NCBI GenBank assembly: GCA_028275775.1
Contig: JAPWTZ010000019.1
Span: forward strand, 1 to 8,395
Source: Candidatus Nanopusillus sp.
GTDB taxonomy: Archaea > Nanobdellota > Nanobdellia > Nanobdellales > Nanobdellaceae
DNA: 8,395 nt
Direction: 5' to 3'
The position numbers and the translations under genes are program-made. The notes beneath the pieces were generated by a model, which ran no database searches, had not been told where the DNA came from, and saw only the letters and a program-made list of their open reading frames with translations. Positions 1-7,370 of this stretch are shown in pieces; position 1 is the stretch's first letter, and the number at the start of each line of letters is the position of its first letter.

Positions 1-768
1 AAAGAATCTCCTGATTTTGAATTTTCAAAGAAAATATATATTGGAGATTCTGTTCTTTTTTCAAATAAATATCCATATGGAAAATATCATGCAGTATTGG
101 TTCCAAACTATAAAAAACATGTAAAGAATTTTTCTCAAATAAGTTATTTAGATCTTTACAATTCATTCATGCTAATAAAAGAATTTTATGAAAGAGTACC
201 TAAAAAAGATTATAAATATATATTTATTAATTTAAATAAAGGATTTTCTGCAGGTGCATCACAAGAACATTTACATTTCCAAATATTGATTGAAAAAGAA
301 CCAACAAATTATTTTAAAATTTATCTAGATAAATCTAACAAATATTTTGATAAATATAAAAAATTCTTTATAGAAGATTATTTTAATTTTGAAAAACAAT
401 TAAATGAAAGAATAATATTAGATGGAATAATCAAATTATGGTCTTCTTTTGCTCCATTTAGGAACAATGAATTAATTGGATATGTTGATACATTTGGTAT
501 ATTTTTCTTATCACAGAATAAATTTGAAGAATTCATTAAAACTTTATACAATATTTTAGTTACATATGAAAAATTATATGAGAATTTCAATTTAGTTATA
601 TTTGATACAACATTATTAAGAGAATCTAGATCATATCCAATTATTAAAATAGCACAAAGACCTTTATTTGATATTGGTTATATGGAAACTTGCCATTTAG
701 AATATGTTGTTTCATCAATACCTGAAGAAACTGCAAAAGAATTTAAAGAAAATTTCGAAAAAATTTAA
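1..768 (+). CDS. GalT-branch HIT-superfamily nucleotidyltransferase (galactose-1-phosphate uridylyltransferase-like); 5' end lies outside the window
   Basis: Frame 1 is open from nt 1 (KESPDFEFSKKIYIGDSVLFSNKYPYGKYHAVLVPNYKKH...), so the TTG at 97 in the ORF track is probably internal. The block FINLNKGFSAGASQEHLHFQI matches the GalT active-site signature (F-x-N-x-G...G-x-S-x-x-H-x-H-x-Q, cf. E. coli [20 protein letters not shown] recalled from memory). About 165 aa follow the motif, consistent with the second half-barrel of GalT-type proteins. Stop TAA at 766-768. Confidence 0.7.
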   Translation, partial: KESPDFEFSKKIYIGDSVLFSNKYPYGKYHAVLVPNYKKHVKNFSQISYLDLYNSFMLIKEFYERVPKKDYKYIFINLNKGFSAGASQEHLHFQILIEKEPTNYFKIYLDKSNKYFDKYKKFFIEDYFNFEKQLNERIILDGIIKLWSSFAPFRNNELIGYVDTFGIFFLSQNKFEEFIKTLYNILVTYEKLYENFNLVIFDTTLLRESRSYPIIKIAQRPLFDIGYMETCHLEYVVSSIPEETAKEFKENFEKI

Positions 769-1062: not shown

Positions 1063-1656
1063 TTATTTATAATATGCGATAAAACTAAATCTATAATTCT
1101 TCGGATAAGATAACTCAATTTCACCATCATTTTTGTTTTTTCTTACTCTTAAAGCTACAAATCGAGAAACATAGTTATTTGTAGACCATCCAAAGATAAT
1201 GCTATTTTCATTCATTTCTTCGAGTATCTTGTAAGAGTCTGATGTTTTTCCTTCAAAGTCTATTAATATTTTTGAATAATTTCCCCCAGAGTCCAAATGA
1301 GAACTATTATTTCTTTTATATTTCTCTTTATATACTTCAGTAGTTAGCTGTATAGCTAGCTTTTCTATATCCTTTATTAATTTTTTAATTTCCTCTATAT
1401 TTTCATTTACTCCCCCTATATTAATACGAATATTATAATAGTTCTCTTCATAACTAGATTTACTACGATATATATATTTGTACTTATATTGAGAGCTTTT
1501 CCTTAATTCGACAAGACCTATTCCCTCATGTCCATTGGGTCCTCTATATATTTCTATCCTAACATTCTTTCTCCCAGGACCTAAGAAACTTGAAAGCATC
1601 CACATGCTTGCTAGTATCTCATCAAGAGTTTTGAATGAATTTCCTTCATTACCCAT
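1063..1656 (-). CDS. Hypothetical protein (197 aa), no recognisable family; possible internal two-fold repeat flanking a central helix
   Basis: A 197-codon ATG-start ORF is unlikely to be random in such AT-rich, stop-rich DNA. A TATA-like palindrome lies 21-32 nt upstream of the ATG. Residues 8-64 and 142-197 look weakly similar by eye (FKTLDEI/YKILEEM; NGHEGIGLVEL/NDGEIELSYP; YKYKYIY/YRFSFIAY). Confidence 0.75.
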   Translation of the reverse strand: MGNEGNSFKTLDEILASMWMLSSFLGPGRKNVRIEIYRGPNGHEGIGLVELRKSSQYKYKYIYRSKSSYEENYYNIRINIGGVNENIEEIKKLIKDIEKLAIQLTTEVYKEKYKRNNSSHLDSGGNYSKILIDFEGKTSDSYKILEEMNENSIIFGWSTNNYVSRFVALRVRKNKNDGEIELSYPKNYRFSFIAYYK

Positions 1657-1740: not shown

Positions 1741-2184
1741 ATGGCAATATTACTTCAAAAAACCTATGGGATTTTTATATTATTTGGTAATAACCTGGTA
1801 GAATACGAAAGAATTAGAAATAATGGAAAGTTTTTGGAAGAATGGATAAAAGATCTTAAAAAAGAATTAAACAATCAATATAAAATAATTTTTGATAGAC
1901 TTGAATCTTTAAAAGAATTAAGAGGAAAAATAGAAAAATTAAATGGAGAAATAAAATTAGAAAACTTTTCAATTCCATTATTTTCAGATAGGATAAGTAG
2001 GGATATAAGGATTATATTTTCTATATTTAAAAATACACATAAAATTGTTGTTTGGGGAATAGATCATCATGAAAAAGCATATGGAAAAATAATAAGGCAT
2101 GCTGAAAGTTTTATAAAAAATCATAAAGAATTAATATTAAATTTCTTAGGAATAAAAACAGAACCTAAAAAATTATGGATATAG
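1741..2184 (+). CDS. RelE/ParE-superfamily-like protein with N- and C-terminal extensions (147 aa)
   Basis: The core IKDLKKELNNQYKIIFDRLESL...RISRDIRIIFSIFKNTHKIVVWGIDHHEKAY follows the RelE/ParE pattern. That pattern is helix 'kdLkkL..q.ri...l..L', then 'R.r.gdyRiiy.i....ivil.i.hRk.vY' (cf. archaeal RelE ...[31 protein letters not shown], recalled from memory). It is longer than typical toxins of about 90 aa. An alternative in-frame TTG at 1834 would give 116 aa. The last 12 nt overlap the asnS 3' end. Confidence 0.55.
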   Translation: MAILLQKTYGIFILFGNNLVEYERIRNNGKFLEEWIKDLKKELNNQYKIIFDRLESLKELRGKIEKLNGEIKLENFSIPLFSDRISRDIRIIFSIFKNTHKIVVWGIDHHEKAYGKIIRHAESFIKNHKELILNFLGIKTEPKKLWI

Positions 2185-3525: not shown

Positions 3526-3577
3526 TCCGACTTTCCATCAATATTAGATATTTAAAAATATTTATAAATGATAAAGA
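3526..3577. promoter_or_regulatory. 52-bp divergent asnS/acylphosphatase promoter region
   Basis: The AT-rich core atatttaaaaatatttataaa (3547-3568) contains tttaaaaata (3551-3560). This box starts 27 nt upstream of the acyP ATG (3578) and ends 26 nt upstream of the asnS ATG (3525) on the other strand. That leaves room only for leaderless or near-leaderless transcripts. Confidence 0.45.
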
Positions 3578-3880: not shown

Positions 3881-4291
3881 ATGAAAAATAATGAAAATGA
3901 AAATATTTCACCAGAGGAAGAGGAAATATATAAAAAAGTTGAAGATATGTATGAAAAAATTGTTGAAAATCTAAATAAAACTTATCAATTAAAGAGAGAA
4001 GATAATAAGGATATAGAGAAATTTAATAAAGAATATACAAATATGTTTGAATATGAAAACAAATTATATAATTATTTAGATGAATTTGCCGGAAATATTG
4101 GTAAATATAACAAAAAATATTATAAAAAATTAAATAAAGAATTAAATAAATATAAAAAAGCATATGAAAAAAGCTTAAAAAATACTTTATCTATATTTAA
4201 AAAAATAATTAATAAAAGAAGAAAAATAAAAAAACATATTGAAAATATAATAGAATTAGTAAGAGAATTAGAAAATATGAAGGGACCGTAG
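3881..4291 (+). CDS. Lys/Glu/Asn-rich coiled-coil protein (136 aa), acidic N-terminus and strongly basic C-terminus; function unknown
   Basis: A 136-codon ORF in stop-rich AT DNA with a well-placed TATA box. The N-terminus is acidic (NENENISPEEEEIYKKVEDMYEK). The C-terminus is basic (KKYYKKLNKELNKYKKAYEK...KKIINKRRKIKKH). The final codons GGA CCG TAG (4283-4291) lie inside the tRNA acceptor stem. Confidence 0.65.
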   Translation: MKNNENENISPEEEEIYKKVEDMYEKIVENLNKTYQLKREDNKDIEKFNKEYTNMFEYENKLYNYLDEFAGNIGKYNKKYYKKLNKELNKYKKAYEKSLKNTLSIFKKIINKRRKIKKHIENIIELVRELENMKGP

Positions 4292-4354
4292 TCTAGTGGC
4301 TATGATGCCGCCCTGACTAGGCGGAGGTCCGGGGTTCAAATCCCCGCGGTCCCA
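4282..4354 (+). tRNA. tRNA-Val (anticodon GAC), 73 nt, no encoded CCA, no intron
   Basis: Manual cloverleaf. Acceptor stem is GGGACCG (4282-4288) with CGGTCCC (4347-4353), discriminator A4354. D arm is GTCT / AGTGGCTA / TGAT. Anticodon stem is CCGCC (4308-4312) with GGCGG (4320-4324), and the loop is CTGACTA, giving anticodon GAC (4315-4317). Variable loop is AGGTC. T arm is CGGGG / TTCAAAT / CCCCG. The sequence after it is ctt, so CCA is not encoded. Confidence 0.9.
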
Positions 4355-4370
4355 CTTATATTTTTTATTT
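4355..4370 (+). terminator. Oligo-T tract after the tRNA (cttatattttttattt); also TATA-like for the next gene
   Basis: The T6 run at 4361-4366 begins 7 nt after the tRNA 3' end. The same string starts 31 nt upstream of the ATG at 4386 and resembles a TATA box. Confidence 0.45.
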
Positions 4371-4385
4371 ACAAAATAGTAGTAT

Positions 4386-5237
4386 ATGAATGATTTATTA
4401 GAGTACGTAAGTACAAAGATTTACAAAAAGTTAGAAAAAAGTTTCGACAGAAAGATAACTCTTTTAGAATATTTAATTGGAGAATCTCCTTTAATATTCT
4501 TATACAAAAGAGAATTATTGAATTGTAAAGATATATCATCGAGTTACCTACCAGATCGTTATTATTATTCTATTAGAACATTTAAGATATTTAATTTAAT
4601 TGAATACAAAGATACAGAGATATGTGATTTATCAAAATTGGCTGAAATTATGTTAGGAAAATATATATTAGAAAAAGATTTATCTAAAATAGCTAGAGCA
4701 AAATATGAATATATAAGAGATAGTAATTTCTTTGAAGAATTAGGTGAAGATACTCTTTTAGCTCTATGTAAAAATCTCTATAAAGAAGAAAACTTTTATC
4801 ATTTTCCTAAGCAATATTTCATCTATTATTTTATTATAGAAAAATTATACGGAGGGGTAGAAAATGATACTCCTTATATTATAGAACTATTAAGGGGAAA
4901 TAAGAGAATAATAGCCCTTTTATCTCTTTATCTTTTAAATTTAAATCATCCTAACTGGTCTTTTAAACAAGAATACATAGCAGAAAATATAAAGGATATT
5001 GCGGGTCATAGATGTGTAAATTTACTTTTTACTTCAAGAGGAAGAAAAAGATATACTATATCACATCTATTTGCACGCATGAAGCGTTTTGTTATTAGAT
5101 CTAGTAGCAGTACAGCATATAAGAAATATAGAATATCACAGGAAGGAAAAGAATTTATTGAATATATTTTAATGCAAATTTATCCTATAGAATACTCTTA
5201 TAAAAATCATATAAAAACTTTCAACATAATAATCTAA
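4386..5237 (+). CDS. Tandem-paralog family member A (283 aa): predicted double winged-helix protein, unknown function
   Basis: A long ORF with an ATG start and TATA-like geometry. It shares five collinear blocks with the next two ORFs. Examples are NLIEYKDTEICDLSKLAEIML (wH wing 1), TPYIIELL, IIALLSLYLLNL and a C-terminal KKYRISQEGKEFIEYIL (wH wing 2 plus helix). Confidence 0.85.
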   Translation: MNDLLEYVSTKIYKKLEKSFDRKITLLEYLIGESPLIFLYKRELLNCKDISSSYLPDRYYYSIRTFKIFNLIEYKDTEICDLSKLAEIMLGKYILEKDLSKIARAKYEYIRDSNFFEELGEDTLLALCKNLYKEENFYHFPKQYFIYYFIIEKLYGGVENDTPYIIELLRGNKRIIALLSLYLLNLNHPNWSFKQEYIAENIKDIAGHRCVNLLFTSRGRKRYTISHLFARMKRFVIRSSSSTAYKKYRISQEGKEFIEYILMQIYPIEYSYKNHIKTFNIII

Positions 5238-5290
5238 ATTTTTATATATAATTTCATCTTTATAATCTTTATTTATAAGTAGTAATTATT
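5238..5290 (+). promoter_or_regulatory. Intergenic promoter for paralog B
   Basis: TATA-like strings are tttttatatata (5239-5250), ctttataat (5258-5266, starting 33 nt upstream of ATG 5291) and ctttatttataag (5267-5279). Confidence 0.4.
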
Positions 5291-6028
5291 ATGACAACTT
5301 CAAGGATAGATGAATTATTAACAAAGATTCAGATAAAAAGTTATGAATCAAATCAATCAATATTACAAACAGTTATCGAAAATGATACTATTTTATATCT
5401 TTTAATGAAAATATCTGAAGGGCAATTATCTGAAAGCGATATATATTCGTATTATCATACTCTTTTATATCTTACCAGAAAAAATCTTATAATAAAAGAA
5501 AAAGATACGTATCATTTAACAGATATTAGTAAGACAATAACTGAAAAAATCAAATATGAATTAAAATTATTAAAAAATATCAATAATGAAAATCTGGATA
5601 GTATAGATACATATAATTTATTAGAATCTACTTGTGAAAATATAGTAGAAATTAGTAGATCAAAGAAAATAAAACATCCTTTCTCTTATATAATATTTCA
5701 ATGCCATAATCAACAGGGTCCTTTCACATCATATTTTGTAGGAAGAAATGGAATAATATTAATATCTTTATACTATTTATCATGTAAAAAAGGAAAATGT
5801 TATAATTGGTGGTATTCGCCAAAACAAATAAGGGACAGATTATTTAATATACCTGGATGCTATAATAATTTTGGAGATGGCTTTAATATTAACCCTTTAG
5901 TAAAATATGGACTTGTATACCAAAGAAAAGGATTAAGAAATATTTCAAGATATAAATTATCTGAAGAAGGTTATAATGTTGCAAAATTTATATTAAAAAA
6001 TTTAGCAATAGTATATAAATATTATTAA
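5291..6028 (+). CDS. Tandem-paralog family member B (245 aa): predicted double winged-helix protein, unknown function
   Basis: Blocks shared with paralog C are NQSILQTVIEN / NESILQALEEK and RKNLIIKEKDTYHLTDISKTITEKI / ENGLLKCNDNYCEVTDDGISLYEKY. Further shared blocks are HPFSYIIF / NPFVEMLL and IILISLYYLSCKKGKC / VLTLLLMYRLTLSCEFNGRC. The last is PLVKYGLVYQRKGLRNISRYKLSEEGYNVAKFIL / PLLSHGLIEEKSDSERKRYRLTQIGYWVSRYL. Confidence 0.85.
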   Translation: MTTSRIDELLTKIQIKSYESNQSILQTVIENDTILYLLMKISEGQLSESDIYSYYHTLLYLTRKNLIIKEKDTYHLTDISKTITEKIKYELKLLKNINNENLDSIDTYNLLESTCENIVEISRSKKIKHPFSYIIFQCHNQQGPFTSYFVGRNGIILISLYYLSCKKGKCYNWWYSPKQIRDRLFNIPGCYNNFGDGFNINPLVKYGLVYQRKGLRNISRYKLSEEGYNVAKFILKNLAIVYKYY

Positions 6029-6099
6029 GTTAGACAATAAATCAATATTAGAGATATTAAAAATATATTTTTATTTTTTACTATGTAATAATAACTACT
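6029..6099 (+). promoter_or_regulatory. Intergenic promoter for paralog C
   Basis: aaaaatatatttttatttttt at 6058-6078. Its atatatttttat core starts about 36 nt upstream of ATG 6100. The T5/T6 runs could also terminate paralog B transcription. Confidence 0.4.
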
Positions 6100-6885
6100 A
6101 TGAAGATAAGGCCATATAACAACAATGGACCATATCAATATGATTTATTAAATGGGGCATTGGGATTGGCTATACATTCTTATATGAAAAATGAATCTAT
6201 TTTGCAAGCGTTAGAAGAAAAATATAATGAAATTAAAGAAATCTTATATATATTGGAGAAGGAAAAAATAAGAAGATATTCTAAGTATAAAAAAGGAATA
6301 GATTTACTAATTGAAAACGGATTATTAAAATGTAATGATAATTACTGCGAAGTTACAGATGACGGAATTTCCTTATATGAAAAATATGAAAGTGAAAAAA
6401 ATACTCTTGAAGAATATTTAGAGGATTTCCATATAGTTAGTATCCATAATATTGATATGAAAGATATTTCATATGTTGGTTTAGATAGTATATTGAAATA
6501 TGTTAAAAAATATGGTCTTCCCGAATCAAAAAGAAAATATACAAATCCTTTTGTAGAAATGCTACTTATAAACCAACCAGAAAATTTCACAATGCATATT
6601 TTAAGTACAGAATATGTATTAACTTTATTGTTAATGTATAGACTTACTTTATCATGTGAATTTAATGGAAGATGTATAAATTACTATGTAACTGGGGGAA
6701 GAATTTTAAGAGAATTAGAAGAAATTGGAATATATAGAAAGCGCCTTCCATTAAGACCTTTACTTTCTCATGGATTAATTGAAGAAAAATCAGATAGTGA
6801 AAGAAAAAGATATAGATTAACACAAATTGGATATTGGGTCTCTAGATACCTAACCTTACAAGCATATATAGCATCCCATCTTTAA
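6100..6885 (+). CDS. Tandem-paralog family member C (261 aa): predicted double winged-helix protein, unknown function
   Basis: See the shared blocks listed for A and B. Both halves carry the classic wHTH signature 'GL[IL]...Y-x-[LV]-T-x-x-G' (IENGLLKCNDNYCEVTDDG and SHGLIEEKSDSERKRYRLTQIG). The stop is only 8 nt before the next ATG. Confidence 0.85.
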   Translation: MKIRPYNNNGPYQYDLLNGALGLAIHSYMKNESILQALEEKYNEIKEILYILEKEKIRRYSKYKKGIDLLIENGLLKCNDNYCEVTDDGISLYEKYESEKNTLEEYLEDFHIVSIHNIDMKDISYVGLDSILKYVKKYGLPESKRKYTNPFVEMLLINQPENFTMHILSTEYVLTLLLMYRLTLSCEFNGRCINYYVTGGRILRELEEIGIYRKRLPLRPLLSHGLIEEKSDSERKRYRLTQIGYWVSRYLTLQAYIASHL

Positions 6886-6893
6886 TTTAAATT

Positions 6894-7370
6894 ATGGGAG
6901 AAAAATTATTAGATGAAAAATATTTAGAAAATTATTTGAATAAGCTAGGTATATCTTTTCAAATTATTAAATATGAAAAACCCGTTATGTCTGCAAGAAA
7001 TGCTGAAGAACATACTGATGGAATTGTTGCAAAAAGTATTATATTAATTTGCAATAATAAACCTTTATTATGTTTTTTATTAGGAAAAAATATGGTTGAT
7101 TTAGATAAAATAAAGAAATATTTTAATTGTAATGAAGTAAGATTAGCAAAAGCAAAAGAAGTAAAGGAAATTACCGGGTATGATATTGGTTCTGTACCAC
7201 CCGTAGGTTTAAAACAAAAGATAAGAACAATTGTTGATAAAAGTATAATAGAATTAAATGATAATCAAATAATATATTGTGGAGGAGGATCACATTATCA
7301 TTTATTAAGAATTTCAAAAAAAGATTTACTCAAAATTATGGAATATGAGGTATATGATATTAAGGTCTAA
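6894..7370 (+). CDS. YbaK/ProX/EbsC-family aminoacyl-tRNA trans-editing (deacylase) domain protein
   Basis: 158 aa, the size of a single YbaK domain. The pattern is KSIILICNNKPLLCFLLGKNMVDLDKIKKYF...VRLAKAKEVKEITGYDIGSVPPVGL...IVDKSI...IYCGGG. This fits the family layout (K-s-l, 'r.vd..Kl', 'a..ee....tG...G.v.P.G', 'v..D.sl', 'GgG'). Assigned from recalled family patterns, not a search. Confidence 0.75.
   Translation: MGEKLLDEKYLENYLNKLGISFQIIKYEKPVMSARNAEEHTDGIVAKSIILICNNKPLLCFLLGKNMVDLDKIKKYFNCNEVRLAKAKEVKEITGYDIGSVPPVGLKQKIRTIVDKSIIELNDNQIIYCGGGSHYHLLRISKKDLLKIMEYEVYDIKV

Follow-up and report, generated by a model that had tools for sequence, protein, structure and literature searches.

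The window analyzed here, 8,395 nucleotides (nt) of archaeal DNA from Candidatus Nanopusillus sp. with a GC content of ~24%, contains three tandem genes, designated A, B, and C, that lie between tRNA-Val(GAC) and a YbaK-like gene and encode proteins with two predicted winged-helix (WH) modules each. The paralogy of the three proteins, their predicted fold, narrow distribution, hypervariability, mosaicism, and repeated gene loss are directly established. With modest confidence we favor the reading that they are soluble two-WH nucleic acid-binding regulators that are clade-specific, accessory, and polymorphic; DNA binding and regulation are the part of this reading that we infer. A, B, and C would be sequence-specific nucleic acid-binding proteins and would probably regulate transcription, with a strongly basic, EarA/PadR-like second module (WH2) contacting DNA and the first module (WH1) and the long helices serving in self-association or partner binding. 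Their divergent coding alleles are exchanged whole by recombination at conserved intergenic borders.

The three open reading frames (ORFs) occupy positions 4386–5237 (A, 283 amino acids (aa)), 5291–6028 (B, 245 aa, the core member), and 6100–6885 (C, 261 aa), all on the plus strand, and all are intact in the window. The tRNA-Val gene (4282–4355, plus strand; identified by ARAGORN, Rfam 63.8 bits) forms the upstream border of the array and ends 30 nt before A; A and B are separated by 53 nt and B and C by 71 nt, and C abuts the YbaK-like tRNA-editing gene (6894–7370, plus strand; Pfam tRNA_edit, 4.1e-25), the conserved downstream border, at a distance of 8 nt. These coordinates, lengths, and spacings, including the position of the trio directly after the tRNA, agree exactly with an earlier reading of the DNA (the original prediction), and the peptide motifs that it quoted are found in the translations.

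Sequence comparison securely identifies B and C as paralogs, which align over their full length (BLASTP E 9e-10, 27% identity across 242 columns; hhalign probability 98%, E 1.8e-13). A is the most divergent of the three, and the alignments support its placement as a distant family member: against B it gave a BLASTP E of 0.15 and a profile-profile (hhalign) E of 3.4e-5 over 223 collinear columns, and against C a BLASTP E of 0.003 at the C terminus only and a profile E of 0.01, collinear over 217 columns. Decoys made by reversing the alignments were far weaker, with E ≥ 0.11 over ~20 columns for A-B and E 0.24–0.7 over 11–12 columns for A-C. The proposed paralogy therefore holds in pairwise and profile alignments, as does the near-absence of nucleotide similarity that had been noted among the genes: no long nucleotide repeats link A, B, and C, the longest being 28–31 nt at 71–86% identity in AT-rich DNA. 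An internal duplication or fused dimer within a chain was considered and rejected, the N-terminal and C-terminal halves giving an hhalign E of 0.011 over 30 columns of generic WH signature only.

The AlphaFold2 model of B, built with a 27-sequence alignment, is compact, with a predicted local distance difference test score (pLDDT) of 88.5 and a predicted TM-score (pTM) of 0.88. It comprises an N-terminal helix that carries the conserved SYxxNQxILQ motif, WH1 (residues 24–77, nt 5360–5521; helices 33–63 and hairpin 67–76), a long helix (78–94), a helical middle region (107–164), a small Cys-containing hairpin loop, the basic EarA-like WH2 (151–224, nt 5741–5962; helices 151–205 and hairpin 209–223), and a C-terminal helix (225–244). 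The model of A, of moderate confidence (pLDDT 72.6, pTM 0.76), has the same order of elements, with WH1 at ~26–82, an extra low-confidence linker at residues 127–139, and a basic WH2 at ~173–250 followed by the C-terminal helix. In C, WH1 (~34–88, nt 6199–6363) and the basic WH2 (~169–243, nt 6604–6828) were located by alignment to B. Two WH modules per protein, as originally proposed, are thus borne out by the models of B and A and, for C, by that alignment. Conservation is highest in the long helix, in the first helix of WH2, and in the C-terminal helix; core residues and motifs are conserved, and no transmembrane segment is predicted in A, B, or C. In all three proteins WH2 has a pI of 9.7–10.0 and a net charge of +6 to +12, and WH1 together with the middle region is acidic to neutral (pI 5.1–7.9).

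Some C-type proteins, of 191–218 aa, lack WH1 and are otherwise intact, retaining the N-terminal motif, long helix, helical core, and WH2. They include P0046, P0049, P0054, and P0085 and the products of L011 3876–4490 and L013 7001–7654, the L numbers designating the 13 related loci that were recovered. Because such intact members exist, WH1 is dispensable, and WH2 with the helical core is the minimal unit. Cysteine pairs occur near both modules. Residues Cys78 and Cys83 of C (nt 6331–6348) flank the turn of the WH1 wing and are invariant within full-length C alleles, and CxxxxC or CxxxxxC loops precede WH2 (residues 165–170 of B and 186–192 of C) in class-I B and C alleles and are lost in other classes. 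A metal-binding site as the defining feature of the family was rejected since the CxxxxC loops are missing from the other allele classes; in a thermophile, the pairs and loops might act as disulfide staples or form a metal site.

No full-length match to any family or solved structure was obtained in Pfam, NCBIfam, PHROGs, PADLOC, PDB sequence profiles, or Foldseek, and the earlier statement that the family is not recognizable stands, the HMM, PDB-profile, and Foldseek searches giving only borderline single-WH matches. The Pfam model EarA (PF07381) matched residues 176–233 of B with 23.0 bits against a gathering cut-off of 22, matched C below the cut-off (13.6 bits), did not match A, and reached E ≤ 0.01 in 8 of 27 members of the B/C family. 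On WH1 of C-type proteins, HTH_45 (PF14947) was found in 8 of the 27 members (best E 9e-6; cut-off 25.5 bits) and DUF4364 (PF14277) in 5 (cut-off 26.9 bits), and the NCBIfam model Sso10a (NF053610) scored 22.4 bits over residues 60–92 of C against a cut-off of 60, with no match in A or B; all three span only ~35–65 residues of this module and fall under their curated cut-offs. PHROGs and PADLOC gave weak generic WH matches only. Against PDB sequence profiles, the best results for B/C were HxlR 3df8 (E 0.085) and RosR (E 0.19), and there was none for A. Foldseek searches of the PDB with the A and B models returned nothing at E ≤ 0.001 (all E ≥ 0.08), and the best matches were all WH DNA-binding proteins: APE_0880a, MarR/MepR, RosR, SSV1 F-93, and TubR, with probabilities of ≤0.99 over ~80–110 columns. 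The top match, APE_0880a (PDB 2pg4; probability 0.97, 25% identity over 79 columns), is a small archaeal putative DNA-binding WH protein. These structural matches, all of them to WH DNA-binding proteins, the domain-level sequence matches, and the basic character of WH2 speak for the reading as DNA-binding regulators.

EarA (formerly DUF1495) is an activator of the archaellum operon in Methanococcus maripaludis and Pyrococcus furiosus. It resembles the present family in being archaeal and in having a winged helix-turn-helix domain, and WH2 of B is basic. However, the EarA model has 90 positions and covers only residues 176–233 of B, in a family whose proteins have 245–283 aa, and that family, unlike the EarA model, includes a second WH at the N terminus as well as a long helix and a helical core and is tandemly triplicated, hypervariable, and known only from Nanoarchaeota. 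EarA activates fla operons by binding 6-bp sites upstream of BRE/TATA (PMC5512572), and N. acidilobi expresses archaellum proteins (PMC4935971); no fla genes are present in the window or in the related loci that were fetched. The borderline, single-domain match to EarA is thus taken as a lead only. The signature '...GL[IV] - wing - Y-x-L-[ST]-x-x-G - helix' is shared with MarR, PadR, HxlR, and RosR proteins, and the Foldseek probabilities reach 0.99 for MepR/MarR and 0.91 for RosR. The MarR/PadR-type structural matches as a group (probability 0.9–0.99, E 0.1–1, target-normalized TM-score 0.35–0.53) cover one WH only, and none of the Pfam or NCBIfam models of these families matched. In PadR and Sso10a, as in this family, the WH is followed by a long helix. 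Proteins of the MarR/PadR type have one WH per chain of ~110–150 aa and form homodimers, whereas here two non-identical WH modules are combined in one compact chain. The family is not mentioned in Jarett 2018 (PMC6142677), Wurch 2016, or the EarA papers. It is a real, previously undescribed two-WH family, a new arrangement within the well-known winged-helix kind.

Two WH modules per chain of ~250 aa, in paralogous sets, are likewise found in ScpB/MukE, ESCRT-II Vps25, Cdt1/WhiP, Rpc34/TFIIE-beta, and A49. Such sets do build structural and assembly machines, and the genes here are adjacent and on one strand. The original prediction had accordingly proposed that A, B, and C are subunits of a hetero-oligomeric DNA- or protein-binding complex like those of kite/ScpB, ESCRT-II, Cdt1/WhiP, or Rpc34/TFIIE-beta. 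Among the weak Foldseek matches are the tandem WH of A49 (probability 0.15), TFIIH p52 (≤0.13), and WH domains of MukE and of ORC/Cdc6/MCM proteins, MukE and ORC aligning with one WH over ~100 columns at E > 0.1. No match is full-length or covers two domains, no Pfam match to the ScpB, Cdt1, ESCRT-II, or Rpc34 families was found at E ≤ 1, partner genes for SMC/ScpA, MCM, or Orc1 are present in none of the loci, and the family is absent outside one small clade. The gene contents and rates described below also speak against this proposal, which we consider quite improbable. The Rep_3 plasmid initiators also have two WH modules per chain; there was no Pfam Rep_3 match, the initiator structure 4pt7 was matched with a probability of 0.21, and no iteron-like tandem or direct repeats or origin-like repeats occur in 4200–7000.

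RNA binding by WH domains is known from La, SelB, and Roquin, and a role of A, B, and C as RNA-binding WH proteins, possibly in tRNA or RNA metabolism, would be in keeping with the basic WH2 and with the neighboring genes for tRNA-Val, a class II aminoacyl-tRNA synthetase (aaRS), the YbaK deacylase, and exosome subunit Rrp42. SelB and Roquin do appear among the weak Foldseek matches, but with low probability (0.20–0.25); the closest domain matches are DNA-binding regulators, and the neighbors are housekeeping genes with very different evolutionary dynamics. An RNA-binding role is accordingly judged very improbable.

Word-indexed protein searches returned 14 clusters for C (the window protein being P0001), 7 for A, and 15 for B. 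When 1.84 billion representatives were searched exhaustively (hmmsearch) with a B+C profile, 18 proteins reached E ≤ 1e-3, one of which is an unrelated 907-aa MarR-repeat protein. All family members with an organism name belong to Ca. Nanopusillus or Ca. Nanobsidianus, with no member from N. equitans; a scan of species-representative genomes recovered only Nst1. The B homolog there is Nst1_164 of Candidatus Nanobsidianus stetteri, and the proteins flanking the array are 92–98% identical to those of that genome, which places the window in a hot-spring nanoarchaeote of the Nanopusillus/Nanobsidianus group. The family is restricted to the hot-spring Nanoarchaeota of this group.

Gene content in the related loci was determined by HMM scans, and a tRNA scan covered 12 of the 13. 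tRNA-Val(GAC) adjoins the array in all 12, and ybaK, rpoK, and rrp42 follow it in every locus that reaches far enough downstream. The array itself is variable. (i) The window, L009, and L004 have intact A, B, and C. (ii) L010 has A and B with a truncated C followed by a second partial copy of C. (iii) L001–3 have B and C, and their A is frameshifted at the inter-domain linker (136 + 139 aa). (iv) L013 and L014, from two independent metagenomes, have an A cut short at codon 192 by a stop (and, in L013, also frameshifted), a B that is intact in L013 and frameshifted in L014, and a WH1-less C of 217 aa. (v) L007 has only B and C, and the divergent lineage of L011 and L012, in which Rrp42 is 66% identical, has B and a WH1-less C of 204 aa. 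(vi) In L006 the locus contains a B-type gene, and a C-type gene of 306 aa lies ~7 kb away. (vii) Nst1 (L005) has only B, with relics of A and C. Thus A is intact in the window, L009, L010, and L004 and inactivated or absent in L001–3, L013/14, L005, L007, and L011; a B-type gene is present in every lineage sampled, including the divergent one. B forms the core that has been kept; A and C have repeatedly been inactivated or deleted. In Nst1, the relic of A is a 5' end in which ATG is changed to ATA and internal stops are present, and that of C is a 3' end of ~190 nt beside ybaK, which is 58% identical to the C-type P0046 (E 3e-21) and contains an internal stop. The trio therefore dates back to the ancestor of the clade. 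In L010 (2614–3673), C is truncated at 237 aa without the last wing strand and the C-terminal helix, and the second copy (residues 36–158, 80% identical) runs to the contig end; it reflects either ongoing tandem duplication or a metagenome assembly artifact.

These gene contents, with B retained and A and C lost again and again, sit poorly with an obligate complex of A, B, and C: co-occurrence is not obligatory, with B alone in Nst1, B and C in L007 and L011, and A broken or missing in several lineages. The idea of an old triplication that has been kept is upheld in that the trio is ancestral, as the relics indicate, and fails in that A and C have been repeatedly lost. The description of the locus as accessory, variable DNA is confirmed by the differing array contents; the position beside a tRNA, which had been taken as typical of accessory DNA, is no signature of integration. 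An integrated mobile element was rejected: the window encodes no integrase, the 3' end of the tRNA is not repeated downstream (no att repeat), there is no GC anomaly (the trio region has 22–28% GC, like its surroundings), and the position is conserved in all 12 loci that were scanned for tRNAs. A viral, plasmid, or defense origin was likewise rejected: PHROGs and PADLOC gave weak generic WH matches, tblastn against phages and plasmids found nothing, and a BFVD structure search gave no full-length viral match.

The trio is hypervariable within a conserved frame. In comparisons of the window with L004, L001, L007, and L005 (Nst1), the flanking proteins are 89–100% identical (aaRS 96–99%, Rrp42 94–99%, RpoK 94–100%, YbaK 89–92%, with YbaK of Nst1 83–92% in two pieces), and A, B, and C are only 33–54% identical between loci, apart from B of Nst1 (72%). 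Substitution rates at non-synonymous (dN) and synonymous (dS) sites were estimated by the Nei-Gojobori method (NG86), which is crude in a 24% GC genome: in the flanks dN is 0–0.06 and dS mostly 0.13–0.31, and in the trio dN is 0.29–0.67 (B in Nst1 0.15), dS 0.40–0.77 (Nst1 0.28), and dN/dS 0.54–0.87, so that the trio evolves 10–60 times faster than its neighbors at non-synonymous sites. Between close alleles dN/dS is 0.40–0.58 for A, 0.40–0.96 for B, and 0.71–1.23 for C, compared with 0–0.26 for the neighbors; the overall ranges reported are 0.40–0.64 for intact A and 0.56–1.23 for C. Such rapid evolution of allele classes is unlike that of core machinery and is a further point against a hetero-oligomeric machine.

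The promoters are more conserved than the coding sequences. A conserved TATA-like box lies at approximately −30 to −23 before each ATG: TTATATTT at 4356–4363 in the region before A (4356–4385), TTTATAAT at 5259–5266 in the A-B intergenic region (5238–5290), and TTTATTTT at 6070–6077 in the B-C intergenic region (6029–6099), all on the plus strand. From these boxes we infer that each gene has its own leaderless-type promoter and that the transcripts are separate. Relative to L004 and L001, the tRNA-A segment is 87% identical in nt and the A coding sequence 74%, and the A-B intergenic region 89–91% and the B coding sequence 72%; the last 30 nt of the A-B intergenic region are retained in Nst1. 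The last 45 nt before C are 80–89% conserved, with the block ATATATTTTTATTTTTTAC common to the window, L004, L001, and L007. Shared operator motifs were sought in the three promoters and rejected, only AT-rich TATA-like similarity and short non-conserved palindromes being found.

In L013 and L014, the A and B alleles are window-like (87–94% identical) and the C allele is only 38% identical. Nucleotide identity between the window and L013 is 90–99% from 4300 to ~6000, 30–60% across ~6000–6875, and 97–100% at ybaK, the B-C intergenic region forming the left breakpoint. Since identity collapses exactly across C, divergent alleles have been swapped as whole-gene cassettes, and C behaves as an exchangeable allele cassette. 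It follows that the divergence of A, B, and C is unreliable as a measure of duplication age, and the family evolves too fast for the sequence divergence to be read, as it originally was, as a sign of an old triplication. A second sharply bounded block lies upstream of the tRNA, where orf136 (3881–4291, plus strand; 136 aa, K/E-rich, and not a WH protein) has 59–77% nt identity to L013 across 3900–4200 between flanks of 91–99%; its dN/dS is 0.29–1.73, and it has no family match in Pfam or NCBIfam. A diversity-generating retroelement was rejected as the source of variation, there being no reverse transcriptase in the window and the variation spanning whole genes, not one variable repeat.

Under one alternative reading of this pattern, the locus would be polymorphic and serve specificity or conflict, with allele classes kept by negative frequency-dependent or diversifying selection and hypervariability that is adaptive. 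The allele classes differ by 45–70% in protein within a frame that is 95–99% identical in nt, two independent samples (L013 and L014) show cassette-like exchange whose breakpoints fall at gene borders, promoters are conserved while coding sequences have diverged, and dN of the trio exceeds dS of most flanking genes. Replacements are also enriched on the WH recognition surfaces of B: among class-I B alleles, 60% of columns on the recognition helices and wings of both modules are polymorphic versus 38% elsewhere (Fisher p = 0.004). A raised density of non-synonymous single nucleotide polymorphisms has been reported in nanoarchaeal hypothetical proteins (Jarett et al. 2018, PMC6142677). By analogy with agr and pherotype loci, the proteins might be heteroimmunity-like repressors, take part in self/non-self or anti-viral discrimination, or regulate genes in a strain- or host-specific way. 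However, no defense, phage, or plasmid family or record was matched in PHROGs, PADLOC, tblastn, or BFVD searches, no co-varying partner or target was identified, and relaxed selection would account equally well for how often A and C are inactivated. Other lineage-specific ORFs are equally variable (aa identity of 32–39% for orf197, 65–79% for orf147, and 53–91% for orf136), and therefore the pattern is not unique to the trio. We regard a specificity or conflict role as unlikely, though to be taken seriously; its stronger form, in which tRNA-Val-[A]-B-C-ybaK would be a balanced multi-allelic locus of an obligate archaeal ectosymbiont, its intracellular two-WH proteins serving strain-, host-, or virus-specific recognition and its cassettes being shuffled between near-identical genomes, is a rather doubtful proposition.

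The same data can be read as showing largely dispensable ORFans under relaxed constraint in a reduced symbiont genome, which would be genuine WH proteins by descent but retain little function except perhaps that of B. The dN/dS of 0.4–1.2 against 0–0.26 in the neighbors fits this account, as do the inactivation or loss of A on at least four independent occasions (the frameshift in L001–3, the stop at codon 192 in L013/14, the relic in Nst1, and the absence from L007 and L011), the truncation of C in L010 and its relic in Nst1, and the frameshift of B in L014. On the other hand, long ORFs have remained intact although their proteins have diverged by ~50% and stops arise easily in a genome of 24% GC; conservation extends to core residues, motifs, the confidently predicted fold, and the promoters; a B-type gene is present in every sampled lineage; and dN/dS is below 1 in most comparisons. 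Dispensability of the trio therefore seems fairly improbable to us. The specificity/conflict and dispensable-ORFan accounts, both of which fit the evolutionary pattern, are the main rivals of the regulator reading.

Several points weigh against the reading of A, B, and C as DNA-binding regulators. The matches to known families are all borderline and single-domain, and WH folds bind RNA or proteins too. The putative recognition helix of B, GDGFNINPLVKYG, is short, contains a proline, and has few basic residues. The architecture of C as a two-WH protein is deduced from its alignment to B. The enrichment of replacements seen in B does not extend significantly to C alleles, in which 40% of recognition columns are polymorphic versus 33% elsewhere (p = 0.34). 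The dN/dS values carry the crudeness of the estimation method, and taken with the frequent pseudogenization such high values (0.4–1.2) could reflect a weak or fading function.

Among the other genes in the window, Pfam identifies a class II Asp/Asn-type aaRS, an acylphosphatase, the YbaK-type deacylase, RpoK (Rpb6), and an Rrp42-like exosome subunit. The ORF at the 5' end of the window (97–768, plus strand), for which a TTG start is given, resembles GalT/HIT proteins (NCBIfam galT, E 4e-7), and its homologs in related loci have a full length of 327–329 aa and carry DUF4931_N. The ORF orf197 (1063–1656, minus strand) has no Pfam or NCBIfam match and is more variable than the WH trio, being 32–39% identical while the adjacent aaRS is 96–99% identical. 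The ORF orf147 (1741–2184, plus strand), at 65–79% identity between loci, has a weak match to DUF7337. The 52-nt intergenic region between the divergent aaRS (minus strand) and acylphosphatase (plus strand) genes (3526–3577) is 98–100% identical in L004, L001, and L007, more conserved than the synonymous sites of the flanking genes, and is presumably a tightly constrained bidirectional promoter. The final 10 nt of orf136, including its stop codon, overlap the 5' end of tRNA-Val. In L011 and L012, the acylphosphatase gene and orf136 are missing between the aaRS gene and tRNA-Val, and a ParE-toxin-like gene (a weak Pfam match) lies next to the aaRS gene (L011 1202–1546, L012 1193–1537). In Nst1, ybaK (L005 7017–7489) aligns in two frames, residues 1–98 and 99–158, and the frameshift is either real or an error in sequencing a single-cell genome.

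Since Nanoarchaeota, whose genomes are among the smallest of any cells, have very few recognizable regulators, an expanded clade-specific family of putative DNA-binding proteins may be considered a candidate for lineage-specific control, possibly of functions related to symbiosis. The compact two-WH arrangement would define a new protein family entry. The locus is also a clean example of cassette-like allele exchange in a population whose housekeeping loci are nearly clonal; its coding sequences have diverged further than the promoters before them and much further than neighboring genes. If this variation is not adaptive, it documents the decay of accessory ORFans in reduced genomes. If it is adaptive, it marks a molecular interface under selection for conflict or specificity in an archaeal symbiont, and a locus with such a role would be an archaeal counterpart of bacterial pherotype and immunity loci, built on an undescribed two-WH arrangement.

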